DNA of 64,000 bases from a virus (taxonomy: Duplodnaviria > Heunggongvirae > Uroviricota > Caudoviricetes). The stretch lies in the IMG/VR virus record IMGVR_UViG_3300025117_000034, one strand, 5' to 3'. Below, one piece after another: positions 1,661-58,781 of the stretch (the stretch's first letter is position 1; every line of letters begins with the position of its first letter). The notes below the pieces were generated by a model that made no database searches, had not been told where the DNA came from, and saw only the letters and a list, made by a program, of their open reading frames with translations. A program made the position numbers and the translations under genes.

Positions 1661-1671
1661 AAGTGCACCCC

Positions 1672-2775: not shown

Positions 2776-2779
2776 TATA

Positions 2780-3535
2780 CTATGTAACCTCCCCTTCTTT
2801 CTTGGTTTCTTTCTTATCAACCTTACCGAAGAACTCCTCAACACCAGTGGTCAGCTTGATGATACCCTTCTCTGCCAGATCATTGATGTTGCGCATCCCA
2901 CCATGAGTTCCAGGGCCAATGATCTTCTCAAAGGAAGGGAGCTTAAGCAGGTTATAGCTGCCACCAAGAGAAGACATATTGATTGTCTTGAGCATGCTAC
3001 GAACTTTCTTGCTGCGCTCCACTATGTCAGCATAGCTCTTGGGAGCAGGACGAATATAGGAGCTGAGTTCACCCACGCACAGAAGCTTTTCTGAGGAGTC
3101 ACCATCCCTGTCACGGACACCAAAGTTGTTGTGGAAGTGCGAGCCGACATAAGGCCACTGGGTGAAGTAGACATACTCACCGTTCGGTTCATACACTGCA
3201 CCAATGTACCCATTGAATACTGCAGGCTCAACCATCTTCCAACGCTTGCCATAGCTGTCCAGGATATACTCAATGCGAAGTTCACCTGTGTAGCCAACAA
3301 CGCACATGTAGTTACCCTTGTAGAAACGCACAGGGATCTCAGGACTGTTAATAACTGAGGGCATATTAAACTTTGACTTGCGCAGCTCCCGCATAGCCGC
3401 ATTGATCTGCTCCAGCTTGCCTTTAAATAAACGAGCTAATGAGGGAATGGGTACAGGCTTGTCCATTTCCTTGAATACTTCGACTGTCATGGTCTGCGGA
3501 GAACCATCAGCGGTGTCTTCCTCTTCGTCAGCCAT
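2780..3535 (-). CDS. hypothetical protein; candidate E2/UBC-like fold (HxHNN...LLC)
   Basis: N-terminal helix, then a beta-rich core, then SHFHNNFG...EKLLCVGEL resembling UBC HPN...ICLDIL with a longer insert. Sits between the MIB/HERC2 and E1 genes. Start chosen at MADEEED (GGAGG RBS). Confidence 0.4.
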   Translation of the reverse strand: MADEEEDTADGSPQTMTVEVFKEMDKPVPIPSLARLFKGKLEQINAAMRELRKSKFNMPSVINSPEIPVRFYKGNYMCVVGYTGELRIEYILDSYGKRWKMVEPAVFNGYIGAVYEPNGEYVYFTQWPYVGSHFHNNFGVRDRDGDSSEKLLCVGELSSYIRPAPKSYADIVERSKKVRSMLKTINMSSLGGSYNLLKLPSFEKIIGPGTHGGMRNINDLAEKGIIKLTTGVEEFFGKVDKKETKKEGEVT

Positions 3536-4610
3536 TGCCCTGACCTCCAACTCCATTTATTTCCCACACATGCTCAAACCTGAACTGACCCTGCAGCTGA
3601 GAATCCTTGTTAACACCATGAATAGCGGCAGATCTCTTGTCACGGAGCATAACCATGAATGTGTTGCACAGACCTGCAGACTTTGCCCCATTCATAAGAC
3701 GAACTAGCACTTCCCTGACACGCTTGTTCCCAAGGTCATACAACGGGACACCAAACGCTATGAGCATGACAGACTTGCCCTCACGGTAACGCTTGAATCC
3801 CTTGAGAGCTTTCTCCACCAGCTTTTTATGCTCTTTCTCAGCAGCTTCATTGGTTGAAATCACCTTGGAGTTGATAGCATCAGCAGCTTCCTTGCGCTTG
3901 GCTGCTATCTTTGCTGCATCGTGCTTGGTAACACAGCAGATATGCTTCTTAGCATCATTGTAGGCGTAGTAATAGCTGGCAGTATTGCCCCACATCACCT
4001 CAATGTTATAGATCGTTCCATCCTGTGAGGTGAAATTACGACCTACACCAATCACCCTGCCCTTGCCAGGCTTGCCATTGGTGAAATCCTGATTGCCATA
4101 GCTCCAGTCCCTGCCACGGCGAACCATCATACCAACCTTAAGCTCGGCAGGGTAGTCATCATCGGGAAGCTCAGGAGTTTCCTCCTTCTTTTCGACAGGC
4201 TTCGGTTCCTCCACAACAACGGCAGGAGCTGGGTCGTCATCAGCAAACGGATCAGGATCTTCCACTACTGCAGGTGCCGGAGTGACCAGCACAAAGTCCT
4301 GACGTTCACCACCATACAAGTAACTGTCAGTTCTGTCATTACTATCCCAACGGATTCTGTACCAACGTGAACCAGGGTAGTCTCTGTTGTCTCTTCCTAA
4401 CTCGATAATCTCACCGGCCTGCTCAACACCATGGTAATGATCCTGTGTACCCCATTGCCAGGTAAAACCACGACGAACACGGTCACCAACAGCAGGTACC
4501 CACGGTGTTGCAGCCGGTTCCTGCTGTTGAGCAGGGGCACTGTCAGCCACCGGAGGAGCCACTACTGCTGCCGGTACAGGTGCAGCTGCTGTCAAATCAC
4601 TTAGGCGCAT
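3528..4610 (-). CDS. tandem MIB/HERC2-domain protein with Ala/Pro-rich linker and unknown C-terminal domain
   Basis: Two copies of G.RVRRG..W.WG.QD..G....G.V...........Y...W (VGDRVRRGFTWQWGTQDHYHG... and VGMMVRRGRDWSYGNQDFTNG...) match the MIB/HERC2 consensus. Start MRLSDL with GGGAGGTGG RBS. Confidence 0.8.
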   Translation of the reverse strand: MRLSDLTAAAPVPAAVVAPPVADSAPAQQQEPAATPWVPAVGDRVRRGFTWQWGTQDHYHGVEQAGEIIELGRDNRDYPGSRWYRIRWDSNDRTDSYLYGGERQDFVLVTPAPAVVEDPDPFADDDPAPAVVVEEPKPVEKKEETPELPDDDYPAELKVGMMVRRGRDWSYGNQDFTNGKPGKGRVIGVGRNFTSQDGTIYNIEVMWGNTASYYYAYNDAKKHICCVTKHDAAKIAAKRKEAADAINSKVISTNEAAEKEHKKLVEKALKGFKRYREGKSVMLIAFGVPLYDLGNKRVREVLVRLMNGAKSAGLCNTFMVMLRDKRSAAIHGVNKDSQLQGQFRFEHVWEINGVGGQGNG

Positions 4611-4830
4611 CTTCCACCTCCCCACCATAGATACTCATTATCAAGCTCATTGAAACCTCAGCCCATCGTACAAAGTCAGGGAGGTAAATGTAACCACCCT
4701 TTATATCCTTGACCATATCCATACCCTCTTCGATATGATCGGCTATCTCATCAATTTCGTCATCATCAGGTGGGGCAGACTCAGCCGACACCAGCGGACT
4801 GGGCTTCCCGTTCAGTTGTGCCATATTCAT
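4597..4830 (-). CDS. small acidic hypothetical protein
   Basis: ORF track, 77 aa, D/E-rich. First gene of the colinear run feeding into the MIB/HERC2 operon. Confidence 0.5.
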   Translation of the reverse strand: MNMAQLNGKPSPLVSAESAPPDDDEIDEIADHIEEGMDMVKDIKGGYIYLPDFVRWAEVSMSLIMSIYGGEVEDAPK

Positions 4831-6998: not shown

Positions 6999-7081
6999 TG
7001 GAGCGCACGACTGGGATCGAACCAGCATTTTCAGCTCCTGTTACGATTAACTGCTTAGAAGGCAGACTCGGCTACGTGCGC
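6999..7081 (-). tRNA. tRNA-like element with aberrant cloverleaf (possible tRNA-Arg TCT or pseudo-tRNA)
   Basis: RC gives a 7-bp acceptor stem GCGCACG/CGTGCGC, T-arm GCTGG-TTCGATC-CCAGT and an encoded CCA. The only anticodon-like hairpin is CTGC-CTTCTAA-GCAG (TCT). No D-arm can be formed. Confidence 0.45.
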
Positions 7082-7086
7082 GTTAT

Positions 7087-7551
7087 TCAAGACTTTAACC
7101 AGTGACGTATGGCATTATCAGAGACACCATATTTTCTACCTGTACCACAATATCCTAGTAATTCTACATCATTAAGCAGCATGGCAACAGAAGGTCTTTC
7201 AGCCCTTCTTTGTGATAGTCCCCAGCATTTAACGCTGCAGTACTTTTTGCTATCAATACCACAAACTGAACCACATACAGGACAAATAATAGTTTCTCTT
7301 CTAACCGGATTATGAAGTGCGCAGTGTTGGGAACTGCTGAGAACTTCTAGGTTGGCTCTAGAGTTATTTAGCTTATCTCCATCCTTGTGGTGTACGTGCT
7401 CATCTTTTCTAAGCCATCTCCCCAAGTACATCGAGGCAGCATGCCTATGATAGTACACTTTACCGTTACTAGACAAAGGGTGACCACTGTCCATAAAGTA
7501 CATGTACCCAGTACCAGTATCTAACCTTTGTTTTATGTCTTTATAATACAT
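7087..7551 (-). CDS. HNH homing endonuclease
   Basis: HHKDGDKLNNSRANLEVLSSSQHCALH is an HNH motif. Zn-binding CPVCG...C.VKC. Sits between two tRNA genes. Confidence 0.75.
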   Translation of the reverse strand: MYYKDIKQRLDTGTGYMYFMDSGHPLSSNGKVYYHRHAASMYLGRWLRKDEHVHHKDGDKLNNSRANLEVLSSSQHCALHNPVRRETIICPVCGSVCGIDSKKYCSVKCWGLSQRRAERPSVAMLLNDVELLGYCGTGRKYGVSDNAIRHWLKS

Positions 7552-7587: not shown

Positions 7588-7663
7588 TGGTGGGCAAAGA
7601 CAGAATTGAACTGTCATTGACGACTTATGAGGACGCTGTTCTAAACCATTGAACTATTTGCCC
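7588..7663 (-). tRNA. tRNA-Met (anticodon CAT)
   Basis: RC: GGGCAAA-TA-GTTC-AATGGTTTA-GAAC-A-GCGTC-CTCATAA-GTCGT-CAAT-GACAG-TTCAATT-CTGTC-TTTGCCC-A-CCA. Full cloverleaf with one T-T mismatch in the anticodon stem. Confidence 0.65.
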
Positions 7664-9050: not shown

Positions 9051-9836
9051 TTAGAACAGGCGCAGGTAACAGCAAGGGTTATTGCGCTTGAAGTGAGTTG
9101 CTCTCCATCTCTTGATAATAATGTGATCCTTGTACTTCTCCGATCCATTCCAGATATGACTCTTCAGGATCTTATCCACCTCAGCGTAGCTCGATGCACC
9201 AAGCTGGTCAAGGTCGGAGTTGGTGATACCTAGTCCATCAGTAGGCACAGCTTTGATACATGCTTGCAGGGCACGTTTCTGTGCACGTGTCCCCTCATTG
9301 TCCACGATCCATTGGGCGAGCTGGTACACCTCAGTCTTCCAATAGTGCTGAATAGGTGCTATGTCGCCAACGTCCCCATGCAGAGTCCAGAAGCCAAGGA
9401 GATACTCAGTCAGGTTATCCGTGGACAGCACCGCCCCCTGGCATGAAAAGGCAGTGTTGTACAAGTGAATCATACGCACACGAGCCTTAACGTTACCTTT
9501 ACGAATTTTCTCGTTGGGTATATTCAACAAGGAAAGTTGGTGACTGCTAATTAACTCTACCTCGGAGTCAATCTCTGCTTCGAACCACCTATGAGAGTAC
9601 GTCCTACAAATGTCCCTGGCCCTCTTAAGCTCATCAGGTTTGTTAGACTTGGAAGGGAGTGAAACAAGAACCAAAGGAATACCAAGTTCCTTGTTGCAGA
9701 CATGGTAAGCAAGGGCTGCAACGAGTGCACTGTCCACACCACCACTTACACCGAGAACCAGAGACTTAAGCTGTGCCCCCTCAGTGTATCTCTTGAGCCA
9801 TGTACGTATCTTCTTCACCTCAGATTTGCAGTTCAC
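9051..9836 (-). CDS. nadE: NH3-dependent NAD+ synthetase
   Basis: SLVLGVSGGVDSALVAALA PP-loop, GNVKARVRM, TDNLTEYLLGFWTLHGDVGDIAPI and KT.VY align motif by motif with E. coli NadE. Confidence 0.9.
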   Translation of the reverse strand: MNCKSEVKKIRTWLKRYTEGAQLKSLVLGVSGGVDSALVAALAYHVCNKELGIPLVLVSLPSKSNKPDELKRARDICRTYSHRWFEAEIDSEVELISSHQLSLLNIPNEKIRKGNVKARVRMIHLYNTAFSCQGAVLSTDNLTEYLLGFWTLHGDVGDIAPIQHYWKTEVYQLAQWIVDNEGTRAQKRALQACIKAVPTDGLGITNSDLDQLGASSYAEVDKILKSHIWNGSEKYKDHIIIKRWRATHFKRNNPCCYLRLF

Positions 9837-11005
9837 ACAATCCTCCCGAACACTTGATTGAGATAGGCTAAGTAGCCATCATCCTCACACATCTGCTTGC
9901 CCTCGCTGTCACTCAGTTTGGCCACAGGTTGATACTGGCATTCCGTCATTTTTATAACACATTGCAGTGCAGGAACTCCCACATCATTGGTAAGGTTTGT
10001 ACCTATACCGAACGATGTCTTGATGTCATTACCAAACTTATTGTACAGATCAATAGCCTTGGGGATTGTCAGGCAATCCGAGAACACTGCACTCTTGGTC
10101 TTCGGGTCAATACCCATGTCCTTGTACCAACGGATCAGCTGCTCACACCAAGCATATGGATCACCACTGTCATGTCTGCATCCATCGTACAACTTGGCGA
10201 AGTACAGATCAAAGTCCTTGAGGAACGCCTTGAACCCAACAACGTCTGACAGGGCAATACCAAGATCACCACGGTACTCATCAACCCATTTCTGTAGCAT
10301 GAACTTCTGGGAATCAATGAGCCGAGGACCAAGTGCCTGACCAGCTTGGAGCCATTCATGTGCCATGGTTCCAATGGGTTTCACCCTGTGCTTCATTGCA
10401 AGGTACACATTGGATGTGCCAATGAACTTCTCAGGACATGTGCTGGCAAGGTGACCAACCACATAGTCCTGCCAGTACTTGCTGAACCTGCGCCGTGTAC
10501 CAAAGTCAGCGAACCTGAACCCTGTGGGAGCAAGGCATATATCACTGACTTTCTTGAGCAGTCGTACCTGACCCTCACCCCAGAGGATTGACTCATTCTG
10601 GGTGTGGTTGTAGTACACCTCATTGACAATGGAGAGGATGAGGGTCTCAAAGTAAATGGTCAGAAACCAGGGTCCCTCAATGGTTATACCGAGGTCCCCG
10701 TTGTCCAATGCTTTAACTGTGATGTACTTGGCATTGGGCTTGTACATCTCGAGGAAGTCAATGTAATCAGGCTTGAGGAACCTTATGGTTCGGAGGTACT
10801 CAATCTCCTGCCAATTGAACTTGAGCTCACACATCTGAATGATCTCGCTCTTGATCTCCTCAGCGAATCTGCCAAGCTCTGCCCCTGCTGTTCGGCATTT
10901 AAACTTGTACTTGACATGTGCCCCTGGGAACTGGTGAAACACAGCTTGTCCCATGCTTAATTTGTAACTGTCTAAATCTAGCAGACTTGTGATTATTCCT
11001 CCCAT
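9833..11005 (-). CDS. pncB: nicotinate phosphoribosyltransferase
   Basis: LLDLDSYKLSMGQAVFHQFPGAHVKYKFKCR matches LLDTDAYKLHMQQAVFH...EFRCR. FGTRRRFS, GTSNV..A and GTMAHEW are all conserved versus E. coli PncB. Confidence 0.9.
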   Translation of the reverse strand: MGGIITSLLDLDSYKLSMGQAVFHQFPGAHVKYKFKCRTAGAELGRFAEEIKSEIIQMCELKFNWQEIEYLRTIRFLKPDYIDFLEMYKPNAKYITVKALDNGDLGITIEGPWFLTIYFETLILSIVNEVYYNHTQNESILWGEGQVRLLKKVSDICLAPTGFRFADFGTRRRFSKYWQDYVVGHLASTCPEKFIGTSNVYLAMKHRVKPIGTMAHEWLQAGQALGPRLIDSQKFMLQKWVDEYRGDLGIALSDVVGFKAFLKDFDLYFAKLYDGCRHDSGDPYAWCEQLIRWYKDMGIDPKTKSAVFSDCLTIPKAIDLYNKFGNDIKTSFGIGTNLTNDVGVPALQCVIKMTECQYQPVAKLSDSEGKQMCEDDGYLAYLNQVFGRIV

Positions 11006-11670
11006 AGAACACGTCCGTCAAGGATAGGAGCAAGCCCTGTGATCTTGTCAATGAATCTGACGTTCTTGCCAGCAAAGCGTTTCTTGGTGTCCTCCACTGC
11101 TGTGTCACCAATACCCCTGCAGGCAGCGAGGTTGATGACCACACGGAAGCCAGCGGACACAAGCTGCTCAGAGGTGGTAGCCACGCAGTAATTAGTGGCA
11201 AGGCCCCCAACGATCACCAGCTTAATCCCCTTGCTGAACAGGAACTCAATGACCCCTGTGCTCAGCTTGTTGAACAGATCATGGAAGCATGCGCCGTACG
11301 GGTGGAGATTAGGCTCACAGCCCTTCCATACAAAAAAGTCGTACTCCGTAACATCAGGAAGACCATCCAGCAACTCACAGCCAGTGCTGCCTGTTACACA
11401 ATGGGACGGCCAGTGAATGTCCACATTGGGAAGACCAACAGGGGAAAACGGGGGGTGATCACCATCAGCGTTCCACATAGCCCAAGCAGGGTGGGCATCC
11501 TTGGAGCCAACGCGATAAGCAGCGAACAATGCCTGCTTGTTAAGTTCATTGACGATCTCAAGAGCCCCAGGGACAGGGAGCTCAGCAGGGCAGAGTTCAC
11601 TGAACCCCTTCTGAGCATCCACATCAAAGCTGGCAATGTATTTCTTGTCAATAGCCATATCTTGTGCCAC
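10993..11670 (-). CDS. pncA: nicotinamidase / isochorismatase-family hydrolase (PncA-like)
   Basis: FDVDAQKGF Asp, Lys, and catalytic Cys in ATNYCVATT, plus the isochorismatase fold pattern. Overlaps the pncB start. Confidence 0.75.
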   Translation of the reverse strand: MAQDMAIDKKYIASFDVDAQKGFSELCPAELPVPGALEIVNELNKQALFAAYRVGSKDAHPAWAMWNADGDHPPFSPVGLPNVDIHWPSHCVTGSTGCELLDGLPDVTEYDFFVWKGCEPNLHPYGACFHDLFNKLSTGVIEFLFSKGIKLVIVGGLATNYCVATTSEQLVSAGFRVVINLAACRGIGDTAVEDTKKRFAGKNVRFIDKITGLAPILDGRVLWEE

Positions 11671-13614: not shown

Positions 13615-14547
13615 TCATTTCAGTCCCTCCTCCACTTCCTCATTGAACTTAACCAGTCGCCTGTTGCAACCATACAGACACTTATCGCATTTCTCAGGCT
13701 TGTCAGTGTACACTTGATCCCTGTACAGATGCGAACAGGTGTACTCGTTGCCAGCAGTGCTCAGCACCCTCTCACTCATTGATATGTAGCATGTCCCAGC
13801 AGTGTTCTGTGGGAACCGAACACCTTGAATGATCCTTTGCTTGGCATCCAAAGTCTCCTTGATCAGTTCAAGTGATTCCCTGTCAAGTTCATTGTAAAGC
13901 TTGGGCATCACCTCATCAAAGAAGCAATCCACGTCCTCATCAGTCATCATGTAGACAGGGTTGGTGCCCTTGTACACAGAGAAGAACACTGCGTATGCCT
14001 TGTGGAATTCCCTGGCCGCAAACTGGGCAAACTCAACGGACTGCTTGTAGTTTGCCTTGCTCAGCGTGAAGGTAACGCTGACACCATTGTTAACCTCAAC
14101 TGCCTTCTTGATGTTACCAAGCACCCTGGCATGTGCACCAGGAACCCCCACTGTTTTATCCCAGGACTCTGCATCACAGCTATCAAGGGATACCTTGAGC
14201 CGTCCAACGTGCTCAGCTGGCGGCTCAATGAAAGCATTGGTGTTCAGGTTGAACCTGTACCGCTTGCTGTTCTCACGGATCAATGGATACAGCCATGGAA
14301 CCAGTGACGGCTCCCCTCCCGTGATGTGGAACAGGGCTGTGCTGCCATACTTTTCAAGGGCTTCCCTGAAGCGTTCCTCAGCCAGTGTTGTACAGGAGAT
14401 AGGATGCTTACAGTATCCGCACTTGAAGTTACACTTGTTAGTGATGAACACTGCCACCCTGCGGACAGGTGGGTTTTGCCCAGACTTCAGTGCTGCCACT
14501 GTTTCCTTAACTCGTCGTTCAAAGTCATCCCAATACAAGGAAGACAT
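13615..14547 (-). CDS. radical SAM enzyme, MoaA/viperin-like (CNFKCGYC, ITGGEPSL, C-terminal CxxC..C)
   Basis: ITNKCNFKCGYC matches MoaA ITDVCNFRCTYC and viperin CNYKCGFC. HITGGEPSL matches LTGGEPSL. NLNTNAF. C-terminal CDKCLYGCNRRLV resembles MoaA CATCNRLRV. Confidence 0.75.
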   Translation of the reverse strand: MSSLYWDDFERRVKETVAALKSGQNPPVRRVAVFITNKCNFKCGYCKHPISCTTLAEERFREALEKYGSTALFHITGGEPSLVPWLYPLIRENSKRYRFNLNTNAFIEPPAEHVGRLKVSLDSCDAESWDKTVGVPGAHARVLGNIKKAVEVNNGVSVTFTLSKANYKQSVEFAQFAAREFHKAYAVFFSVYKGTNPVYMMTDEDVDCFFDEVMPKLYNELDRESLELIKETLDAKQRIIQGVRFPQNTAGTCYISMSERVLSTAGNEYTCSHLYRDQVYTDKPEKCDKCLYGCNRRLVKFNEEVEEGLK

Positions 14548-17003: not shown

Positions 17004-17135
17004 TTAGTTTACCAGCTCTTCAACAATGTTGTTACCCACTTTCCAGTAATAAGTCCAGCCACCCCCTTTGCGTGACCGTGCATACATGAACCATCCGAAT
17101 ACCTCTCCGAACTTTTTATAGATAGGTGAGCTCAT
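17004..17135 (-). CDS. small ORF (~43 aa), ATGA-coupled to the repeat-protein gene
   Basis: Own translation MSSPIYKKFGEVFGWFMYARSRKGGGWTYYWKVGNNIVEELVN. Its ATG overlaps the TGA of 17132..18157. Confidence 0.3.
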   Translation of the reverse strand: MSSPIYKKFGEVFGWFMYARSRKGGGWTYYWKVGNNIVEELVN

Positions 17136-18157
17136 ACCTTTATCTCCTTGATCACTCTGCATTTACTGACCCGCACTTTTCCTTCCTGGATGGCAAGGAT
17201 ATCCTTCATATCAACTTCGCATGCCAAGTAACAATCAATGAACTCCCTGTCCCAGTAGTGCAGATGGGACAGGTGTATTCCTGAAGCACAGGATTTCTTT
17301 GGGTCCCTGTCAGGATTTTTAACCCTTACCACCTCTCCTACATGGTAAATGAAGTCAATGTTATACTGAGAGTAGAAACCCCTTAGACTCTTGTAAACTG
17401 ATTTAAACAGGATCACCTTCCCATTGACTGGGAAGTGTAGAGTCTGAGCATACAGGGAGTGTTGTTTATTATTACCCCCTGTGATATCCTGTGCTAAGTT
17501 ACCAACTATAAAGTGTGACTCTCCGGTACGAGAATTGCCATACACCCAAGCATTGCCTGACACCTGAGCATCGCCATACACCCGAGAATTGCCATACACC
17601 CAAGCATTGCCTGACACCTGAGCATTGCCTGACACCTGAGCATCGCCATACACCCGAGAATTGCCATACACCCAAGCATTGCCTGACACCCAAGCATTGC
17701 CTGACACCCGAGCATTGCCTGACACCTGAGCATTGCCATACACCCAAGCATTGCCTGACACCTGAGCATTGCCTGACACCTGAGCATTGCCTGACACCTG
17801 AGCATCACCATACACCCGAGCATTGCCATACACCCGAGCATCACCATACACCCGAGCATCACCATACACCCAAGCATTGCCTGACACCTGAGCATTGCCT
17901 GACACCTGAGCATCGCCTGACACCCGAGCATCGCCTGACACCCGAGCATCGCCTGACACCCGAGCATCACCATACACCCGAGCATCACCATACACCCAAG
18001 CATCACCATACACCCAAGCATTGCCCTCATGGCTAAGGTTGGACTCTTTCTCTACAAAGCCACCTTTGTCTCCAGCTTTGACATTGGAGAAGTCCTTAAG
18101 GGCTATTACCCTGTGCAGACCACTAACTTCCTTTTTACCTAGTTTGTACTTTTCCAT
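17132..18157 (-). CDS. hexapeptide-repeat (left-handed beta-helix-like) protein with ~30 tandem G(D/N)A(R/Q/W)V(S/Y) repeats
   Basis: 341 aa. The central 180 aa are perfect hexad repeats (VYGDARVSGNAQVSGNAWVYG...). Non-repetitive N- and C-terminal domains. Confidence 0.7.
   Translation of the reverse strand: MEKYKLGKKEVSGLHRVIALKDFSNVKAGDKGGFVEKESNLSHEGNAWVYGDAWVYGDARVYGDARVSGDARVSGDARVSGDAQVSGNAQVSGNAWVYGDARVYGDARVYGNARVYGDAQVSGNAQVSGNAQVSGNAWVYGNAQVSGNARVSGNAWVSGNAWVYGNSRVYGDAQVSGNAQVSGNAWVYGNSRVYGDAQVSGNAWVYGNSRTGESHFIVGNLAQDITGGNNKQHSLYAQTLHFPVNGKVILFKSVYKSLRGFYSQYNIDFIYHVGEVVRVKNPDRDPKKSCASGIHLSHLHYWDREFIDCYLACEVDMKDILAIQEGKVRVSKCRVIKEIKV
17500..18040. repeat. ~30 tandem copies of an 18-nt coding repeat (gcattgcctgacacc[tc][ga]a variants)
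   Basis: Seen directly in the sequence. It encodes the hexad repeats and generates the spurious alt-frame ORFs 17499..18036. Confidence 0.85.
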
Positions 18158-30386: not shown

Positions 30387-30815
30387 CTAGTCTTCTGGAT
30401 AATAGTTCTTGTTACCATGCCTGTGCTCGTCATCCATATCATTAGCTTCTCTCTCAGCTATAGCCTTCTTCTTGCGCAGCTCTGCCTCAATGGAATCAAT
30501 GGGCCACACCATACACTGCTCCCGCTTGTATGTGTCGGAGAAGATGCACTGCTCATCAGGTAGCATGTTGCAGAACTTAACCTGTAATGTTTCCGGTACG
30601 TTATCATAGCTCTTACGCATTACATCCACAGCTTCCTCTGGGCTTGATGCCTTGATAGCCCCAACCATAATGTCATTCATGTCACAGTCCATACCAGTGA
30701 TCCACCAAGGACCATGGTACTCAAACTCCTTCTTGCTACAAGGAGAGATCCAGCTTAGGAAGTACGTGTGCTTAGGTAGTTCCTTCTTAGTCCTCTTCTT
30801 AACTCTACTAGCCAT
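30387..30815 (-). CDS. hypothetical protein
   Basis: ORF track, 142 aa. Confidence 0.5.
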   Translation of the reverse strand: MASRVKKRTKKELPKHTYFLSWISPCSKKEFEYHGPWWITGMDCDMNDIMVGAIKASSPEEAVDVMRKSYDNVPETLQVKFCNMLPDEQCIFSDTYKREQCMVWPIDSIEAELRKKKAIAEREANDMDDEHRHGNKNYYPED

Positions 30816-31369
30816 TAAACCTTACCCTCCCTAGCGAACCGTTCTAGTATGATCCATGCCTTTGCACTGATCATTGCACTGCTATCCTTAAGTAGATCTG
30901 AAACCTCTGCTCGAGTTGCTACATAAGTAGTTATGTCCTCTGAGTCCTGTAGGTCAGGTTCTCCTACACCACCACGTGCCTCACAGTATACAATGGCTAT
31001 AGCTTCATCTGTAAGGCCAGCTGAGTTATACACAAAAGGACTTACACGATTTATACCGAAGAGTGAAAACCCTGTCTCTTCCTTGATCTCCCTGTATGCT
31101 GCGTCCTCAACGCTCTCCCCATCATCTATGAGCCCTGCAGGGAACCCCCACTCGTAGCCGCCAAGAGGTGCCCTGTACTCCCTAGTGATAATAATGTTGT
31201 CACCTATGGTAGCCACAATCATTACAGCGTTGACACCAGTACGCCTTGTGACGAACTGCCAATGCTTTGTGTTACCCTTGATCTCATATGTCCTATCAAT
31301 GAAGGACAGGTGGTTGGTACCAGCTAGGAGCTCATCACCGTCCCCTAGCTTTATTGGATTACGTCTCAT
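30815..31369 (-). CDS. Nudix hydrolase, ADP-ribose pyrophosphatase-like
   Basis: Nudix box GGYEWGFPAGLIDDGESVEDAAYREIKEETG (G-x5-E-x7-REuxEExG). Overall layout as in ADPRase/NudF. Confidence 0.8.
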   Translation of the reverse strand: MRRNPIKLGDGDELLAGTNHLSFIDRTYEIKGNTKHWQFVTRRTGVNAVMIVATIGDNIIITREYRAPLGGYEWGFPAGLIDDGESVEDAAYREIKEETGFSLFGINRVSPFVYNSAGLTDEAIAIVYCEARGGVGEPDLQDSEDITTYVATRAEVSDLLKDSSAMISAKAWIILERFAREGKV

Positions 31370-31386
31370 GTGTAACTCCTTTAAAA

Positions 31387-31458
31387 TGGAGGGAGTGGCG
31401 AGACTTGAACTCGCAACCCCATGATCAGTGGTGCTCTATCCATTGAGCTACCTGCCCA
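31387..31458 (-). tRNA. tRNA-like element / degenerate tRNA (perfect D- and T-arms, 3-bp anticodon stem, mismatched acceptor)
   Basis: RC: GGGCAGG-TA-GCTC-AATGGATA-GAGC-A-CCA-CTGATCA-TGG-GGTT-GCGAG-TTCAAGT-CTCGC-CACTCCC-T-CCA. The acceptor pairs at only 4 of 7 positions. Anticodon would be GAT. Confidence 0.35.
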
Positions 31459-31580: not shown

Positions 31581-32405
31581 TTAAGGAACCTGAATCATTG
31601 CTGTAGTGTTGTTTCCTAGAACCGTGGTAGGCATTGCACCATTCCATCTCTCAATCCAACGCAGCTGAAGAACCTGTGGGCTCTGAGCCAGGGCCTGGGC
31701 AGTAAGACGGATAGCCTCAGCCTTACCCTTGGCTTCAGCAATGGCCTGATCAGCTTCAAACCTAACCTGCGCTAGCTTGTTCTCTGCTGCTAGAGCATTC
31801 TGCTCTGCTGTAACCTTGGCCTCAACGGCAGCATTGAAGCTGGGAGAGAAGTCGAAGTTAACAATGTTAAGCTCGTCCACTACAATACCCATGGGGGCAA
31901 GCTTCTCACGCAGTAGAACCTTGATAGCCTCGCGCACCTCTTCACGCTTGGTAACCAGTTCCTCTGCTGTATAACGTGCTGTCACTGACTTCACTGATTC
32001 CTGCAGGGCAGGGTCAATCATACGATCCTTGAAGTCAACACCGAACTGCTGGTAGATAGTTGCCACTGCCTCAGGCTTAATGTTAAAGTTAAGAGCCACA
32101 ACACTATGCACTATCTGAAGATCCTTGGATGCTGCAGAGGCTTCAGTCTGCTTCTTCTGAACACGAACGTCAGCAATGATAACTTCCTGCACGAACGGGA
32201 TCTTAATGTATAGACCTTCACCCTTTACGTCTGAGGACACTGCACCGAACGTAGTAGTAACACCACGCTCACCAGCCCCTACAATACCGAACGTACCACT
32301 GATAGCACATAGAACTAGAACAACCAACACACCACCTACAACAACCTTCCAATTAACAAAGTCCATTGCCTCTCCTTTTATTACCCTCTTGCGGGGTGAT
32401 ATCAT
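31581..32405 (-). CDS. SPFH/band-7 (prohibitin/HflC/stomatin-like) domain protein
   Basis: N-terminal TM, then GLYIKIPFVQEV...TARYTAEELVTKREEV...LAPMGIVVDELNIVNFDFS...AEQNA...EA.GKAEA, a typical SPFH domain with a coiled coil. Confidence 0.85.
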   Translation of the reverse strand: MISPRKRVIKGEAMDFVNWKVVVGGVLVVLVLCAISGTFGIVGAGERGVTTTFGAVSSDVKGEGLYIKIPFVQEVIIADVRVQKKQTEASAASKDLQIVHSVVALNFNIKPEAVATIYQQFGVDFKDRMIDPALQESVKSVTARYTAEELVTKREEVREAIKVLLREKLAPMGIVVDELNIVNFDFSPSFNAAVEAKVTAEQNALAAENKLAQVRFEADQAIAEAKGKAEAIRLTAQALAQSPQVLQLRWIERWNGAMPTTVLGNNTTAMIQVP

Positions 32406-36151: not shown

Positions 36152-36748
36152 CTAAGCTACTTTAACTTTACACACCCATGCAGCCTGGAGGAATGGATCA
36201 GCAAGCAGTGGTCGTAGTAGGTATCTCCGGCTACATTCCTCTATATGATTCTCTGTAATCTCGCAGCAAGGCCACACCTTACCACGCATCTCCTTATTAA
36301 AGAATGTCATATCAGGTGCATAGTCATGAGCCATAATAATATCCCCAACCTTAAGGAATTGGGAGAAGTGATTGAACTCACCAATCTTGTTACCATTGTC
36401 GCATAGTAGAACTGTGATGCCATCCTGCCTGATCATATCAGAGATCTCTTTTAGTGTATCACTTGCAAAGATATCCTTGAACCGCATATCAACACCGAGC
36501 TTATCCAGTACTGACTTGTCAAACAATGAGTTAGCAATGTCGTAGGAGATTACAGAGCAACCTGCTGTTAGGCTGTATAAACCAAGGAATGTAGTGAGCC
36601 CACCATTGAGAGCACCTAGCTCAATGACACGAGCTGGCTTCACAGTCTTGAAGAGCATATCAAAAGCCTCAAGAGCATACTCGTTCTGTGACATTGGGTA
36701 CCCAAGGAAGTCAAGCCTACCTGAATTACCAACAACACTATGCTTCAT
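36152..36748 (-). CDS. class I SAM-dependent methyltransferase (CmcI/Methyltransf_24-like)
   Basis: ARVIELGALNGGLTTF resembles motif I. Size and position fit the glycan cluster. Confidence 0.45.
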   Translation of the reverse strand: MKHSVVGNSGRLDFLGYPMSQNEYALEAFDMLFKTVKPARVIELGALNGGLTTFLGLYSLTAGCSVISYDIANSLFDKSVLDKLGVDMRFKDIFASDTLKEISDMIRQDGITVLLCDNGNKIGEFNHFSQFLKVGDIIMAHDYAPDMTFFNKEMRGKVWPCCEITENHIEECSRRYLLRPLLADPFLQAAWVCKVKVA

Positions 36749-37454
36749 ACGTGAACTCCTTTAGCTCAAACACTGGTTTAAACGTGGCATTAGTTGTGAA
36801 TGACTTTGCATTACTGTGTATACCATTGATACCTATATGGTTACTACGTGAGTGACCAGGAACAACATTGAACATATTGTTCCTCTCAATGATCCTTCGT
36901 ATGTTCCAGTCCCAACCACCTGGAGTTCCTGTAGCCTTACCACTTGAGTAATCAAAGTCCCATGTGTTACGCAGATACGTATTCCATCTGTCCTTCCATG
37001 TCATCCATACCCAGCAGGTTAGCAATCCTAATTTTCTAAATGCATATGGGTTATCCTCTTGCACCGTTTCATTCCTACCACTGACAACCATCACATCCTT
37101 CTGATCCTTGAACAACTTATCAGCTGCAGTGAACATATCAATGATATCATTAGATACAATGAAGTCTTCCTCTGCCAGTACTACACTATCTGAATGTTCA
37201 AACCCACGCTCCAAAGCATTCCAGCTGTTCTTTGCACAACCAATGACTCCCTCATTAACATTGATTGTTACATCACCCACTGAAGAGTTATGACAGAACG
37301 AATCAAGGACAGCAATCATCTCCTTGAGCTTGTCAGTCTTCTCTATATTGAATATCATCTTTACCTTATCAAGATTGTTAACTGCTGCCCAGGAATTCAT
37401 AGTCTCAACAAAGTAATCAACTCTGTTGAATGCAGTGAATGTTATGCAAAGCAT
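36738..37454 (-). CDS. glycosyltransferase, GT2-like (GT-A fold)
   Basis: N-terminal CITFTAFNRVDYFVETMNS resembles GT2 IPTYNR. Acidic EED motif. Confidence 0.45.
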   Translation of the reverse strand: MLCITFTAFNRVDYFVETMNSWAAVNNLDKVKMIFNIEKTDKLKEMIAVLDSFCHNSSVGDVTINVNEGVIGCAKNSWNALERGFEHSDSVVLAEEDFIVSNDIIDMFTAADKLFKDQKDVMVVSGRNETVQEDNPYAFRKLGLLTCWVWMTWKDRWNTYLRNTWDFDYSSGKATGTPGGWDWNIRRIIERNNMFNVVPGHSRSNHIGINGIHSNAKSFTTNATFKPVFELKEFTYEA

Positions 37455-38065
37455 GTGGCTCTGTACCCCTCCATGATTACCTCTAGTATGTTCTCATCCT
37501 TTGTAGCCATGAACAGACCACGATCTGTTCTCTCGTTGTCCCGCTGTTCACAATCATGTACCCAGTAATAACTTGGGTCATTAACTATAACGTTGTACAA
37601 CGTTATAGTTAATGCGCAACCACCGAGCTTTAGGTTAACCGAGTTGGTGTCATGAGCTACCAATAGCCTAGGTAGTTCTGGCTTAGCTATGATAGCTTTC
37701 CACTCCTCCTGGGTTGGAGCAAGGCGATGGTCGCTGTCCAGGAACACAACATCAAAGGGTGGGTTGATACGTATGGCATCAGCACCCTTACCATGGAAGA
37801 TCTCATGCCCACCAATAACCTTTATTGCCTGTGGCTGAAAGTTAATGTCAGCGAACATAGCTCTAAGGATATGCCCCTTGTTGGCTGCATCAACGAACAC
37901 AGAGCTCGACACACCCTTCCACGAGCCAGACTCCAATGATGATAGCCATGGCCCACCAACAGGGTTGCTCAACACGTAGTGCATCCACTCTAAATGCCTC
38001 GTGTCAATTGACATACCAATGTCGAAGTCTGTCACACCTAGCTCAGCAAAGTTAATGTTACTCAT
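37442..38065 (-). CDS. methyltransferase-like protein (DVVFLDSDH motif)
   Basis: FDVVFLDSDH resembles class I O-MTase DFVFIDADH. Confidence 0.4.
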   Translation of the reverse strand: MSNINFAELGVTDFDIGMSIDTRHLEWMHYVLSNPVGGPWLSSLESGSWKGVSSSVFVDAANKGHILRAMFADINFQPQAIKVIGGHEIFHGKGADAIRINPPFDVVFLDSDHRLAPTQEEWKAIIAKPELPRLLVAHDTNSVNLKLGGCALTITLYNVIVNDPSYYWVHDCEQRDNERTDRGLFMATKDENILEVIMEGYRATCFA

Positions 38066-38723
38066 TGTGCACGTTCAGTCTGCTCAGTGCCGCAACCCTT
38101 AAGTCCTTGTCCACTGAAGTAAGGTGTGCAAGGAAGTCACCCTCAGCCCATGGATCCAAAGCCAATGGTTGAACAAAAGCTGGCACAGCATTTAGGATAC
38201 GACGATTTAGAATATTAATATAGTACCTTGTGTGTGGCACAGTCTTGAGCACTTCCCTTACTGCACCTTGATCCTGCTCATAGACTGCACGTGAGTACTT
38301 AAGCAAAGAGCTAGCAAGGTCCAGCAGTTCATTACCTCTAGTGGTATTCATCCACACAAAGTTACCCATAGAGAAGTTACTGTAGGGCTGGTCAATAGGA
38401 TGGTTACCCCAGTCAGTAGATGCATACAAGCATTTCTGACCGTCAATGTTATGCAGGGTCTTAATCAGAGTCATGATGTCAATGAACTGATTAGTTATAA
38501 CTGCATCAGCATCAAGCCATAGTACAGCATCATACCCTTGCTGAAACAGTTCCTTGATTAAACGTAGCTTCTGCCAAGATGGCAGACCAAACTCTTCTGG
38601 GTAGTCAACGTTACACTTAAATGATAGCCCGTACTTCTCAGCGTACCATTCTTTACCCTGCTTGGTACGTGCACCCATCCATGCAAAGTCTTCCCTGTAA
38701 CCTGTAAGCAATACGGTATTCAT
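38058..38723 (-). CDS. nucleotide-sugar glycosyltransferase (GT-A, DxD)
   Basis: YDAVLWLDADAV carries a DxD motif. Confidence 0.5.
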   Translation of the reverse strand: MNTVLLTGYREDFAWMGARTKQGKEWYAEKYGLSFKCNVDYPEEFGLPSWQKLRLIKELFQQGYDAVLWLDADAVITNQFIDIMTLIKTLHNIDGQKCLYASTDWGNHPIDQPYSNFSMGNFVWMNTTRGNELLDLASSLLKYSRAVYEQDQGAVREVLKTVPHTRYYINILNRRILNAVPAFVQPLALDPWAEGDFLAHLTSVDKDLRVAALSRLNVHNE

Positions 38724-38731
38724 GTAATCTC

Positions 38732-39463
38732 CTAGTTAAATGTGTAGCGGCCTGAGATACCATCAAAGATGCAGTTGGGACACTTGATATACGATTCCTG
38801 CGCAAAGGGAAGCCCTAGGCCGATGCGAACTGACATAGGCATACTTTGGTTACCAATGAAATATCGTGCGTCCTTGAGCCTCTGAGCTAGCACCAATGCG
38901 TTCTCACAGGGGTAATAGGGGATGTCAATCTCAAAGGTCTTACTGAACACCTCGTGCTCAAACGGTGTGCCTACGAACTCTGCCTTGTCCCTACACATAC
39001 CAGCAAGGGTTACCCACATGATATAGGCTGTGTGATATCTAAGACTTCTGTTAACAACTATCTCTCTGACAGGAGCTCTACCACTATCAGGAACCTCAAT
39101 CCAAGGTATAATCTCTTTATCAGATAGATCTAGATTGAAGTACTTAAGATGGGACTGAGCTAGGTTCTCTTGATTATCTGCCCTAAGCCTTGTTCTAAAG
39201 CCATTTAGATTTACATTGATCTTCTGTGATACATACTTCTCTACGCCATGTATGTAAGGCTGAGCTTCAATCAGCGGCTTAAGGAAGTTATAACAAGTGT
39301 CATTGAACTTAAGGTGCCACCCAGATCCAAGCTGCCGGTTAACAAACGGATCGTTTCCACCCCCGCTAGTATCCAGATACAGTACTCCACCACCCATTGC
39401 GCGTATCGTTGGAAGCGCATATACAATGTCCCCCATGTCTCCTGAATGTAAAAAGGTCTTCAC
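38732..39463 (-). CDS. GT9-like (heptosyltransferase-fold) glycosyltransferase, tentative
   Basis: SGDMGDIVYALPTIRAM resembles GT9 LGDV...P..RAL. C-terminal FIGNQSMPMSV resembles VGNDSGPMHLA. Confidence 0.4.
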   Translation of the reverse strand: MKTFLHSGDMGDIVYALPTIRAMGGGVLYLDTSGGGNDPFVNRQLGSGWHLKFNDTCYNFLKPLIEAQPYIHGVEKYVSQKINVNLNGFRTRLRADNQENLAQSHLKYFNLDLSDKEIIPWIEVPDSGRAPVREIVVNRSLRYHTAYIMWVTLAGMCRDKAEFVGTPFEHEVFSKTFEIDIPYYPCENALVLAQRLKDARYFIGNQSMPMSVRIGLGLPFAQESYIKCPNCIFDGISGRYTFN

Positions 39464-56468: not shown

Positions 56469-58781
56469 TTATGCAGCACCAACCATAAGTTCGAAGGCTC
56501 TGACTGCAGCACCCCATGTAAACATCTGAGCCTTCTTAATACCAGCCTCTGACTTCTTCTTCAGTGTCTCACGATCATCATACGAGTTACGCATATGAGC
56601 TACAAGTGAGTCCATACTTGGCTGAAGATTGAACCAGCCATTGTCTGTATCCTTTGCATCAATGTATGCTGGAGCTCCACAAGCAACTGTGCTGCAGGTT
56701 ACCAAGTAACTTGTATCCTTTGAAGTGAAATCCATACTACCACCACCGGCTGTGATAATAGCTGGTGTACCTACAGCCATAGCCTCAAGAGCGCATAGGT
56801 TGAACCCTTCTCCACGGTTGGGACTAACTACTACATTGGCCCTCTTGTACAACCCAGCGATAGCTTCCTGTGGCATGAATGAATCCATCACAGTAATGCG
56901 CGGATAATTCTCCTTGCCCTGCATGTGCTGCCGAACCTGCTGCACAAAGTTAGGCATGTTAGGAGCCTGCAGTGTCTTGATAACAAGGGCAACATTGTCT
57001 GACTTGCTAAATGCTTTTGTATATGCATCCAGAACATAGCTAACACCCTTGCGGCTATCAACTGACATTAGACTACCAAGCATAAGGATTACAAATGTAT
57101 CTTTCTTGATGTCAGAGAAATCATGTGGCGTGGCATCAGTGTTGAACACTGACTGGTTGTACCCCAGACCCATGCCTTTAACCTTTTCTTTTGGAACACC
57201 TGAGCCAGTGAATACAAACTCCTCATGCTTGGACAAAGGCATAACATAGTGCAAACCTGGGTTCCATGATTCCTGGACCCACGACTTAGGAAGGTTCTGC
57301 CATTCATAAGGAACAAGATTTACATTTGTCCGACCAACCATAAGCTTACTGTCTAGTGGATAGGATACTCTCAGGTGGTAATCAAAGTTACGGTGTGCAT
57401 AGCTATTGTAGCATGCTGTACGTGCTAGCTCCTTGTTCTGGTTCCAGTGATCCACTGTGAAGTTAGTGTGCTCTACAACATACCCACGTTTGCTGAACTC
57501 CTCAGCTAGTGCCCTGCACACTACTCCGTAAGAGAATGTTGGGCTATCATTACCCTGGATAAGAATGCTACGAGCCGTACTACCAATAAAACACCCTCTT
57601 GGCTCATTTTCTACACAAACTATATTCTCAACCAAATCAACCCACTGCTTCTGAATTACTGGTGCACTATACTTTGCAATGATGTACTCACGCATCGCAG
57701 TCTTTTCTTCTTCAATGGAAACATTGTTCTTCCATGTCTGGTACATCACCTCGAGTGCTTCAGCTGCTTTGTCCGTGTCCATCAATGGACGATCAACACC
57801 AAGGTCTGGCTGGATGTCAAAGGCAATTGGATCAATAAGAACTCCATGGTTGTCAATGATCTCAGGCATAGTTGAGCTCTTGGTAGTGATATTGACAACA
57901 CCACATGCCATTGTCTCAATCAGTGTTACTCCGAATCCTTCTGACGCTGATGGCAAACAATGTACATCTGCCATGTTCATTAGGCTGACCAGTTCTTCTG
58001 TGGAGCACTGCAGCTTACTTGATAGACCACATGAGTCCTTCACACCAAAACGTTCAATCAGGTAAGGAAGGTTGTACCCTGTCTGAAGATTAGTTGACAC
58101 AGTACTCACGTCAGTGTGCATAATAAGAACTGCATCCTTCTTGTCTTTTACGAACTTAGCCCACGCACGAATAAGAAGATCAGGACGCTTTCTCCACTGG
58201 TTACGCGAAACAAATAGTGCTACAAACTTGTCCTCGAAGCCACCCTTCTTCTTAAGCTCCTTCTTGTCTGCTACAGGCTTGAACACTTCAGTATCAACAC
58301 CCAGATAAATAGTTGAAACAGTGTGCTCATTAGGATGTTTATCTAAATACGTGCTATATATTCTCTTGCCATAATCAGCCATGAATACAAGATGCTTACG
58401 GAACCAGATCTGGCTATGAACTGCAGGCTCATTGATTGGCTCGCAGTCAACCGCCACCCAGTGAATACAACGGTTACGCCACTTCTCAGGCAGCTTTGCA
58501 ATATCCATTGTCCAGCTAAACTCAGCAACTGAAATAATTACATCTGGCTGCTCAACAAGAATGATGTGATAGATCTCGTGGTACTCACTTGTACCCTTCA
58601 CACCATATAGCTTCCAATGTGGCTGGAACATTGAGATACCTTGGTCCTTTGCATTGAACCCAATGGACACAACCTCGCTACCATTGTTAATGAACCCGTT
58701 TGCAATTAGTCTGATCTGGTTTGAGAACCCTGTGTGTTGAGCCGGAGAATCGCCAATGATTAGAATCTTACGCACATGCAT
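56469..58781 (-). CDS. dual-domain GT4 (GT-B) glycosyltransferase
   Basis: Two E-x7-E GT4 signatures: EGFGVTLIETMACGV and EGFNLCALEAMAVGTPAI. Confidence 0.75.
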   Translation of the reverse strand: MHVRKILIIGDSPAQHTGFSNQIRLIANGFINNGSEVVSIGFNAKDQGISMFQPHWKLYGVKGTSEYHEIYHIILVEQPDVIISVAEFSWTMDIAKLPEKWRNRCIHWVAVDCEPINEPAVHSQIWFRKHLVFMADYGKRIYSTYLDKHPNEHTVSTIYLGVDTEVFKPVADKKELKKKGGFEDKFVALFVSRNQWRKRPDLLIRAWAKFVKDKKDAVLIMHTDVSTVSTNLQTGYNLPYLIERFGVKDSCGLSSKLQCSTEELVSLMNMADVHCLPSASEGFGVTLIETMACGVVNITTKSSTMPEIIDNHGVLIDPIAFDIQPDLGVDRPLMDTDKAAEALEVMYQTWKNNVSIEEEKTAMREYIIAKYSAPVIQKQWVDLVENIVCVENEPRGCFIGSTARSILIQGNDSPTFSYGVVCRALAEEFSKRGYVVEHTNFTVDHWNQNKELARTACYNSYAHRNFDYHLRVSYPLDSKLMVGRTNVNLVPYEWQNLPKSWVQESWNPGLHYVMPLSKHEEFVFTGSGVPKEKVKGMGLGYNQSVFNTDATPHDFSDIKKDTFVILMLGSLMSVDSRKGVSYVLDAYTKAFSKSDNVALVIKTLQAPNMPNFVQQVRQHMQGKENYPRITVMDSFMPQEAIAGLYKRANVVVSPNRGEGFNLCALEAMAVGTPAIITAGGGSMDFTSKDTSYLVTCSTVACGAPAYIDAKDTDNGWFNLQPSMDSLVAHMRNSYDDRETLKKKSEAGIKKAQMFTWGAAVRAFELMVGAA

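Follow-up and report, generated by a model that had tools for sequence, protein, structure and literature searches.

A predicted NUDT5-type Nudix hydrolase of a T4-like phage and its association with NAD+ salvage genes in other phages

The 64,000-nucleotide stretch of the IMG/VR virus record IMGVR_UViG_3300025117_000034 (the whole stretch that was analysed, hereafter the window) carries a gene for a Nudix hydrolase together with PncA-, PncB- and NadE-like enzymes of nicotinate-route NAD+ salvage. This combination raises a key question: does the Nudix protein act on ADP-ribose (ADPR) and help the phage to rebuild NAD+, or does it serve a purpose unrelated to NAD? NAD+ depletion is among the commonest outcomes of bacterial anti-phage immunity, and for phage nicotinate-route gene clusters there are to date only genome-based listings. 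Sequence, family profile and predicted fold place the protein in the NUDT5-type branch of ADP-ribose/ADP-sugar pyrophosphatases, and its homologues adjoin nicotinate-route salvage genes in related phages, so the Nudix enzyme probably helps the phage to rebuild NAD+.

The Nudix gene

The gene, its Nudix box and its putative ribosome-binding signal were located as follows:

30815-31369, minus strand: Nudix hydrolase gene, predicted NUDT5-type ADP-ribose/ADP-sugar pyrophosphatase; open reading frame (ORF) of 184 amino acids (aa) with an ATG start
31067-31135, minus strand: Nudix box GLIDDGESVEDAAYREIKEETGF, residues 79-101, found by regular expression
31376-31381, minus strand: AAGGAG, Shine-Dalgarno-like, 6 nt ahead of the Nudix ATG, read from the sequence

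The expression G-x5-E-x7-R-E-U-x-E-E-x-G-U was run on the six frames of the 64-kb window, and GLIDDGESVEDAAYREIKEETGF was its sole perfect match; by a rough estimate from amino acid frequencies, far fewer than 0.001 chance matches would be expected per window. The 184-aa protein matches Pfam NUDIX (PF00293) with an E value of 7.8e-15 (55.5 bits against a cut-off of 21.1), 938 database proteins match it at E<=1e-3, and selected homologues are ~40-50% identical to it in alignments over essentially the full length. The ORF is a real gene, and its motif is not due to chance; a gene with a perfect Nudix box, as described in an earlier sequence-only reading, was recovered with exactly the same ORF limits.

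Every sizeable ORF of the window lies on the minus strand, and a T4-type portal, prohead protease and major capsid protein are encoded there. An identical Nudix protein is present on more than 20 metagenomic contigs of ~139 kb (one sample is labelled groundwater), and the end points of these contigs differ; all of them stem from one and the same 139-kb phage, and the window therefore represents ~46% of the genome of a T4-like myovirus in a permuted assembly. Megablast against GenBank phages revealed no near relatives, and IMG/VR scans with the Nudix and SPFH proteins gave distant matches or none. Scans for sigma-70 promoters and intrinsic terminators around the Nudix gene revealed nothing convincing on the coding strand, and the T4 late-promoter motif TATAAATA was not enriched.

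Affiliation with NUDT5-type pyrophosphatases

In a sequence search of the PDB, the best solved relative was human NUDT5 (2.5e-14), followed by E. coli NudE (4e-13). A family profile built from 65 members gave the same order (NUDT5 1.4e-31, E. coli NudE 2.1e-19), and of its 26 PDB matches at E<=1e-8, 24 carry names of ADP-ribose/ADP-sugar pyrophosphatases or of the related methanol dehydrogenase activator, while two are unnamed members of the MutT/Nudix family. The AlphaFold2 model calculated from the family alignment (pLDDT 92.1) displays the alpha/beta/alpha fold of the Nudix superfamily, with the box intact, and its strands at residues 6-42 form an N-terminal beta-sheet domain such as is found in the ADP-ribose/ADP-sugar branch (NUDT5, NudE, NudF, Ndx4 and Rv1700). 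In that branch, the domain forms a swapped dimer and supplies the adenine-stacking residue; the phage enzyme, too, is probably a dimer. When the model was compared with the PDB by Foldseek, the best 19 matches were NUDT5 chains aligned over the full length (TMq 0.74-0.83), and the best 50 of the 490 matches at E<=1e-3 were all ADPR/NDP-sugar (nucleoside diphosphate sugar) Nudix enzymes, including the N-terminal beta domain. Placement in the NUDT5-type ADP-ribose/ADP-sugar pyrophosphatase branch is supported by sequence, profile and predicted fold, in agreement with the ADP-ribose pyrophosphatase-like character proposed earlier.

NUDT5 is the best match by all three measures (TMq ~0.8 over the full length) and shares the two-domain layout of an N-terminal beta domain and a Nudix fold. 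However, the phage protein is only ~27% identical to it and does not have the longer loop that precedes the catalytic Glu in NUDT5, and its clade is viral or bacterial, whereas NUDT5 is eukaryotic. In NUDT5, adenine is sandwiched by W28/W46*, the metal is bound by A96, E112 and E116, E166 is proposed to act as general base, and R51 and R84 are functional residues as well (PMC3203587). Their counterparts are as follows:

NUDT5 W28: H20 in the phage protein; Phe or Trp among homologues
NUDT5 W46: W37, family-invariant
NUDT5 R51: R42, family-invariant
NUDT5 R84: R66, nearly invariant in the family
NUDT5 A96: A78, nearly invariant in the family
NUDT5 E112: E94, family-invariant
NUDT5 E116: E98, family-invariant
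NUDT5 E166: E144, family-invariant

The box residues E94, E97 and E98 are invariant across the 65 family members, and the phosphate-binding arginines R42 and R66 and the post-fold loop residue E144 are invariant or nearly so in the same sequences. The two tryptophans of NUDT5 were not conserved in the prokaryotic ADPR pyrophosphatases known at the time (PMC3203587), which makes the phage clade unusually NUDT5-like. From the homology and the conserved residues we conclude that the protein is in all probability an active NUDT5-type ADP-ribose/ADP-sugar pyrophosphatase with a presumed substrate, and the most likely reaction would be the splitting of ADPR into AMP and ribose-5-phosphate.

Another important question is whether the protein belongs to one of the other characterised Nudix families. 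The sequence-only reading had pointed to NudF and NatV as relatives, a suggestion that did not hold, as NUDT5 is the closest by a wide margin and E. coli NudE comes next. NudE (PDB 1VHG/1VHZ; 30% identity) is the second-best characterised relative and provides the best NCBIfam model, NF008736, but the score is 58.2 bits against an equivalog cut-off of 169, and only the N-terminal 100 residues are similar (model match 43-106), so the protein is no NudE orthologue. The NCBIfam score for NudF orthology is likewise far under the cut-off. For NatV/NadM, the PRK05379 models gave at most 19.6 bits against cut-offs of at least 350, and the 184-aa protein comprises the Nudix domain alone, with no adenylyltransferase domain. 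Phage Nudix proteins are common, with two major clades described (PMC9503650). T4 NudE.1 is also a Nudix protein of a T4-like myovirus and accepts ADPR too (PMC9503650), but it belongs to a separate clade: tblastn of 50,697 phage records (E<=1e-5) returned 9 matches, none of them in a T4-like phage, and the gene described here is not beside lysozyme or head genes. With the annotated 'ADP-ribose pyrophosphatase' of Agrobacterium phage Atu_ph07, only the Nudix box aligns.

NADH pyrophosphatases/deNADding enzymes of the NudC type carry the motif SQPWPFPxS after the Nudix box and a zinc-binding domain. A role of this kind, in which NAD or ADPr (ADP-ribosyl) caps would be removed from RNA as by NudC and, reportedly, T4 NudE.1, has two points in its favour: capped RNA can serve as a substrate for Nudix enzymes from phages and large viruses (PMC9503650), and a tRNA-like sequence adjoins the Nudix gene. 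Nevertheless, the NudC model NF001299 scored 23.3 bits against a cut-off of 158, SQPWPFPxS is absent, the protein has no similarity to NudE.1, and its structural neighbours are all small-molecule ADP-sugar hydrolases, which leaves RNA decapping highly improbable.

Linkage with NAD salvage genes

These data raise the next question: is the enzyme connected with NAD metabolism? The trio of salvage genes recognised in the sequence-only reading is indeed present in the window:

9051-9836, minus strand: NadE, NAD+ synthase of the short ammonia type, putative functional partner (NCBIfam TIGR00552, 148.9 against 63.65 bits; Pfam NAD_synthase 5.8e-42)
9833-11005, minus strand: PncB, nicotinate phosphoribosyltransferase, putative functional partner (NCBIfam equivalog TIGR01514, 441.9 against 269.55 bits; Pfam NAPRTase 1.8e-68)
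10993-11670, minus strand: PncA-like nicotinamidase, putative functional partner (Pfam Isochorismatase, 29 bits)

All seven PDB matches of the PncA-like protein are nicotinamidases or pyrazinamidases (best 4.2e-14), and a PncA homologue 52% identical to it lies 0.6 kb from the Nudix homologue of locus L011.

The gene context was taken from the seven closest readable Nudix homologues (44-53% identity). In all four phage-like contigs among these seven, the Nudix homologue was found within 4 kb of PncB, NadE or PncA, while the other three homologues, on bacterial contigs, had no NAD salvage genes nearby. IMG/VR and metagenome contigs were also scanned with the family alignment, the window enzymes and phage NadD and Macro proteins were used in tblastn searches, and the loci were dereplicated at 90% identity. 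PncA, PncB, NadD or NadE occurred within 10 kb, usually 1-3 kb, in 9 of the 37 viral (IMG/VR) clusters, and no such genes occurred in the 22 metagenome-only non-viral clusters that offered 10 kb of sequence or more (Fisher p = 0.02, for counts that are uncorrected for phylogeny and for a database, IMG/VR, that may hold some non-viral contigs). The gene orders are as follows:

L176: Nudix-NadE-x-PncB-ADP-ribosylglycohydrolase-PncA
L013: Nudix, two small ORFs, RtcB, x, PncB-NadE, with PncB-NadE 2.5 kb away
L011: Nudix-x-PncA, with PARP (poly(ADP-ribose) polymerase) 4 kb upstream
L183: Nudix-x-PncB
L047 group (15 loci) and L046: PncB-NadE-Nudix
L033 and L034: PncB-Nudix-NadE
L015 and L017: NadE-NadD-Nudix

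PncB is present in only 14 of 50,697 GenBank phage records, so its linkage with the Nudix gene is far above the background and amounts to a strong enrichment. Apart from NAD genes, the genes that directly flank the Nudix gene are not homologous from phage to phage, which leaves the salvage genes as the only conserved partners. The tie of the Nudix protein to NAD salvage is thus supported as genuine through the gene linkage of its homologues, and the association of a NUDT5-like ADPR pyrophosphatase with NAD cassettes in unrelated phages may be regarded as a modest new observation. The broader investment in NAD homeostasis suggested by the sequence-only reading is consistent with the homologues beside PncB, NadE, PncA and NadD in other phage contigs; in the phage itself, the trio is 19 kb away on the same strand, and no operon is shared.

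The linkage also resembles that of a non-catalytic ADPR sensor that regulates NAD genes: bacterial NrtR-type Nudix-like proteins sense ADPR and are encoded beside pncA, pncB, nadE or nadD (PMC2330246; PMC9503650). However, the protein has only 184 aa, and past the Nudix fold the model shows one helix (169-181) and no winged-helix DNA-binding domain; its Nudix box is perfect instead of degenerate, all catalytic glutamates are intact and invariant, and no NrtR structure is found within the best 50 Foldseek matches. A regulator of this type is therefore extremely improbable.

Several features of the cassettes were recorded in addition. In L011, L013, L176, L183, L021, L026, L033, the L044 group and L046, PncB and NadE are usual, with or without PncA, and there is no NadD within 10 kb; NadD lies near the cassette only in L015, L017 and L034. 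In cassettes of the former type, the NadD step would be performed either by the host NadD or by some other filler. Other genes of the ADP-ribose network also occur close by, namely, a PARP with WGR and regulatory domains (L011:2948-4369), the ADP-ribosylglycohydrolase between PncB and PncA (L176:7413-8477), Macro domains (L047:12155-12631 and L033:6626-7156) and RtcB plus RlaP (L013:9332-10570). L044, L047, L049, L056, L062 and L067 carry phage tmRNA genes (tag AEELRMVA*) at a distance of ~4 kb from the PncB-NadE-Nudix cassette (~14.0-14.5 kb in the 20-kb loci, 6951-7330 in L044); L026, L027, L030 and L073 belong to the same tmRNA/tRNA observation, and tRNA genes of several of these viral contigs have the amber-reading anticodon cta. 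The cultured jumbo phage Atu_ph07 (L179, record 186402-191071) possesses a Nudix gene of another clade 3 kb from PncB, which suggests that the pairing of an ADPR-type Nudix gene with PncB may have arisen more than once.

Proposed role in NAD+ salvage

The linkage makes it possible to suggest, with somewhat more confidence than doubt, that the NUDT5-type enzyme hydrolyses free ADPR as the ADPR-recycling arm of a phage nicotinate-route (Preiss-Handler) NAD+ salvage. Host NADase defences or NAD-consuming enzymes would cleave NAD+ to ADPR and nicotinamide. PncA would convert nicotinamide to nicotinate, PncB would join nicotinate and phosphoribosyl pyrophosphate (PRPP) to nicotinate mononucleotide (NaMN), an adenylyltransferase, presumably host NadD, would form nicotinate adenine dinucleotide (NaAD), and NadE would convert NaAD to NAD+, so that rebuilding from nicotinamide would cost PRPP and ATP. 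By cutting the pyrophosphate bond of ADPR, and probably of other ADP-sugars too, the Nudix enzyme would yield AMP and ribose-5-phosphate; the latter could become PRPP via host Prs, the AMP would return to the pools on which PncB, NadD and NadE draw, and a reactive by-product would be cleared at the same time. The activity assumed in this scheme is suggested by homology and conserved residues, and the cooperation with the salvage genes by gene linkage in other phages, while a counter-defence benefit would find its only arguments in the Apyc1-like gene of the same phage and in the literature on NARP1-3.

Several findings weigh against this proposal. Ala117 aligns to P134 of NUDT5, where Dunn et al. 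(1999) are said to have placed a hallmark of ADP-ribose pyrophosphatases, a proline ~15 residues past the Nudix box; among the homologues, this proline is kept only in a few, e.g., P0009. W28 of NUDT5 is replaced by His (H20). The Nudix gene lies 19 kb from the PncA/PncB/NadE trio, on the same strand of the same genome and not in one operon with it, and its co-transcription partner, if any, is an ORFan:

30387-30815, minus strand: 142-aa ORFan, coupled translationally to the Nudix gene by a TAATG overlap with the Nudix stop

This ORF has no Pfam or NCBIfam family, and its sole match in 5.8 billion proteins is itself. As regards NadD, no CTP_transf_like Pfam match was found among window ORFs of at least 55 aa, and no NadD was found in ~12 kb beyond the window edges, a search that covered all but ~60 kb of the 139-kb genome, of which the window makes up under half; tblastn with two phage NadD proteins gave a 30-bit, 49-residue match inside a 798-aa protein without a matching Pfam domain, which was rejected. 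Finally, NAD genes are lacking from the vicinity of the Nudix gene in 28 of the 37 viral clusters and in all bacterial homologues, which implies that the family also includes ordinary housekeeping enzymes.

Two of these findings, the distance from the trio and the many clusters without a NAD neighbour, can also be read in favour of a housecleaning enzyme unrelated to NAD, which would clear ADP-sugars (ADP-glucose, ADP-mannose) or oxidised nucleoside diphosphates (8-oxo-dGDP/dADP, which NUDT5 clears as well) and thus protect phage DNA synthesis or divert host sugar-nucleotide pools; the bacterial homologues stand in housekeeping contexts, e.g., beside an rRNA adenine dimethylase gene, with no NAD genes. 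However, housecleaning leaves unexplained why all four closest phage copies and a quarter of the viral clusters are found beside the rare PncB, NadE, PncA or NadD genes, and NUDT5 processes ADPR much faster than oxidised nucleotides (PMC3203587). We consider this explanation unlikely.

The pyrophosphate bond is also present in ADPR-derived messengers, and the sequence-only reading had envisaged their destruction. The Nudix enzyme would then cleave the messengers of Thoeris-type systems, 1''-2'/1''-3' glycocyclic ADPR (gcADPR), histidine-ADPR (His-ADPR) or N7-cyclic ADPR (N7-cADPR), before effector activation. Soluble ADPr-derived signals have been proposed as targets of phage Nudix, Macro and NADAR domains (PMC9503650), and an Apyc1-like metallo-beta-lactamase (MBL) fold protein shows that the phage is equipped against signalling in another way. 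Nevertheless, in a full-text literature search no listed title or abstract reported the degradation of gcADPR by a phage Nudix, and the known counters among the results were sponge proteins; salvage enzymes, and not sponges or phosphodiesterases, are the conserved neighbours, and the active site fits an enzyme for linear ADPR. The suggestion has to be set aside as very unlikely.

As to ADPR recycling within nicotinate-route salvage, several known phage systems allow a comparison. Lee et al. (2017) reportedly observed that the Nudix domain of NatV from Vibrio phage KVP40 hydrolyses ADPR, and NatV, bacterial NadM and NARP2 resemble the present case in that a phage ADPR-type Nudix activity is genetically tied to NAD+ salvage. 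NadM/NatV is, however, an NMN (nicotinamide mononucleotide) adenylyltransferase fused to a Nudix domain (PMC9503650; PMC13464706), whereas the protein described here is stand-alone and its partner route is nicotinate-based (PncA/PncB/NadE) instead of Nampt-NMNAT. The recycling logic has already been ascribed to the fused Nudix domain of NadM/NatV (PMC9503650; PMC13464706), and here it would be carried out by a separate enzyme, from another Nudix clade, beside the nicotinate route. The pncB-nadD-nadE cluster of jumbo phage Kuafu_71 (PMC11662467) contains the same phage-encoded salvage genes, and the IMG/VR cassettes found here are of the Preiss-Handler type of Kuafu_71; unlike Kuafu_71, the phage of the window has a 139-kb genome and is not a jumbo phage, possesses pncA, has no nadD in the window and carries its Nudix gene apart from the trio. 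The report on such clusters, which is based on genome data of jumbo phages, does not mention a Nudix partner (0 occurrences; PMC11662467).

NARP1, NARP2 and NARP3 are the three phage NAD+ reconstitution pathways shown by experiment. With NARP1 (Adps + Namat) and NARP3 (PnuC + NadR), the present system shares the presumed goal, the restoration of NAD+ after NADase attack, and NARP1 also starts from ADPR, but there ADPR is pyrophosphorylated and nicotinamide is re-joined, whereas the Nudix enzyme would hydrolyse ADPR. Domains of the NARP1/NARP3 type (Prs-like, PnuC, NadR/NMNAT) were not found among the Pfam matches to window ORFs. The Nudix protein could be a dedicated and required part of a Preiss-Handler type of phage NAD+ reconstitution (PncA/PncB/NadE with or without NadD), which would represent a fourth route beside NARP1-3 for escaping NADase immunity; this stronger version seems rather doubtful to us. 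Our literature search found no paper that names the Preiss-Handler pathway together with an ADPR pyrophosphatase as a phage counter-defence.

Two further variants concern the fate of AMP. NUDT5 has been reported to make ATP from ADPR with pyrophosphate, and the phage enzyme might yield ATP directly from ADPR and fuel PncB and NadE in an energy-starved cell. In a bolder version, the Nudix enzyme might transfer the AMP of ADPR onto NaMN, which would explain the absence of NadD from most cassettes, but this version is weakened by L015 and L017, which carry NadD and Nudix together. If the link to salvage is functional, the catalogue of metabolic counter-defences would gain a new component; otherwise, we are dealing with an ordinary housekeeping Nudix gene in a large phage. 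In either case, the linkage gives a testable hypothesis on how phages handle ADPR, the other product of NAD+ cleavage, and it points to a small, easily expressed enzyme family.

The tRNA-like element upstream of the Nudix gene

A third question concerns the degenerate tRNA-like element that the sequence-only reading had placed next to the Nudix gene: is it a functional RNA that acts together with the enzyme? The element and its surroundings are as follows:

31387-31457, minus strand: mosaic pseudo-tRNA with encoded CCA (Rfam match 31390-31457, 20 nt upstream of the Nudix gene)
31581-32405, minus strand: SPFH/Band 7 protein gene, upstream of the tRNA-like element (Pfam Band_7 1.9e-34)

The element was detected by Rfam (RF00005, 35.1 bits against a gathering score of 29; E 7.9e-6 in a local search and 1.3e-3 for the whole window) and was not called at 31390-31457 by ARAGORN, so that the earlier description stands and can be sharpened. 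On the minus strand, it reads GGGCAGG UA GCUC AAUGGAUA GAGC A CCA CUGAUCA UGG GGUU GCGAG UUCAAGU CUCGC CACUCCC U CCA, with its 3' end (..U-CCA, 31387) 17 nt ahead of the Nudix ATG. The D and T arms are intact. A functional tRNA would have a 7-bp acceptor stem, a 5-bp anticodon stem, a purine at position 37 and a call by a tRNA finder; here, the acceptor stem forms 4 of 7 pairs (3 non-pairs), the anticodon stem has 3 bp in an arm that is 4 nt too short, and C occupies position 37. In the minimum-energy fold there is no cloverleaf, and its stability does not exceed that of shuffled sequences (z = -1.27).

The two ends of the element have different sources. Up to the discriminator base, its final 25 nt agree in every position with the tRNA-Leu(taa) genes of two IMG/VR contigs, in which the 5' strand GGGAGTG is the exact complement that the element lacks. 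The 5' part is class I tRNA-like and resembles the tRNA-Met of the window itself; a parent with an exact match to it was not found in IMG/VR or in 185,579 species genomes. The simplest reading is that two tRNA genes were fused by a deletion within a former tRNA cluster. In L030 (55 nt) and L018, the Nudix homologue likewise has tRNA genes immediately upstream, which fits accessory genes and tRNA islands that share one variable region.

The same upstream tRNA genes, the Rfam score above the gathering threshold, the intact D and T arms and the position of CCA just before the Nudix start could also be taken as signs of function: the element might be an unusual tRNA, or it might fix the 5' end of the Nudix mRNA as a signal for processing by RNase P/RNase E. 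However, the defective acceptor and anticodon stems, the pyrimidine at position 37, a stability no better than that of shuffled sequence and the origin of the ends from different tRNA types speak against it, and no relatives that could reveal conservation were found among GenBank phages, IMG/VR or species genomes; a functional element is quite unlikely. The tRNA-like element is most probably a non-functional mosaic tRNA remnant that does not act together with the enzyme.

A second atypical tRNA-like sequence is located at 7002-7081 (minus strand; Rfam 33.3 bits, ARAGORN negative). It lacks a D arm and has a good acceptor stem, an insert of ~20 nt and the anticodon loop CUUCUAA; between it and the normal tRNA-Met (7591-7663) lies an HNH endonuclease gene (7087-7551).

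Other genes

Band 7 homologues are found 1-6 kb from the Nudix homologue in L013 (4545-5735), the L051 group and L087 as well, a proximity that may be a coincidence. At the beginning of the window, a ubiquitin-like conjugation-type cluster (461-4628, minus strand) runs off the window start; its products are JAB-like (399 aa), of the ThiF/E1 type (390 aa), unknown (258 aa) and equipped with a MIB_HERC2 domain (366 aa), respectively; next to it lies the gene of a 292-aa MBL fold protein with a match to Pfam Anti-Pycsar_Apyc1 (L184:11204-12082). A radical SAM protein is encoded at 13615-14547 and a YdcK beta-solenoid/bactofilin-like protein at 17132-18157, both on the minus strand. Further genes on this strand comprise a run of methyltransferase-like and glycosyltransferase-like genes (36152-39463) and a double GT4 glycosyltransferase with a 'GT4-conflict' match (56469-58781).

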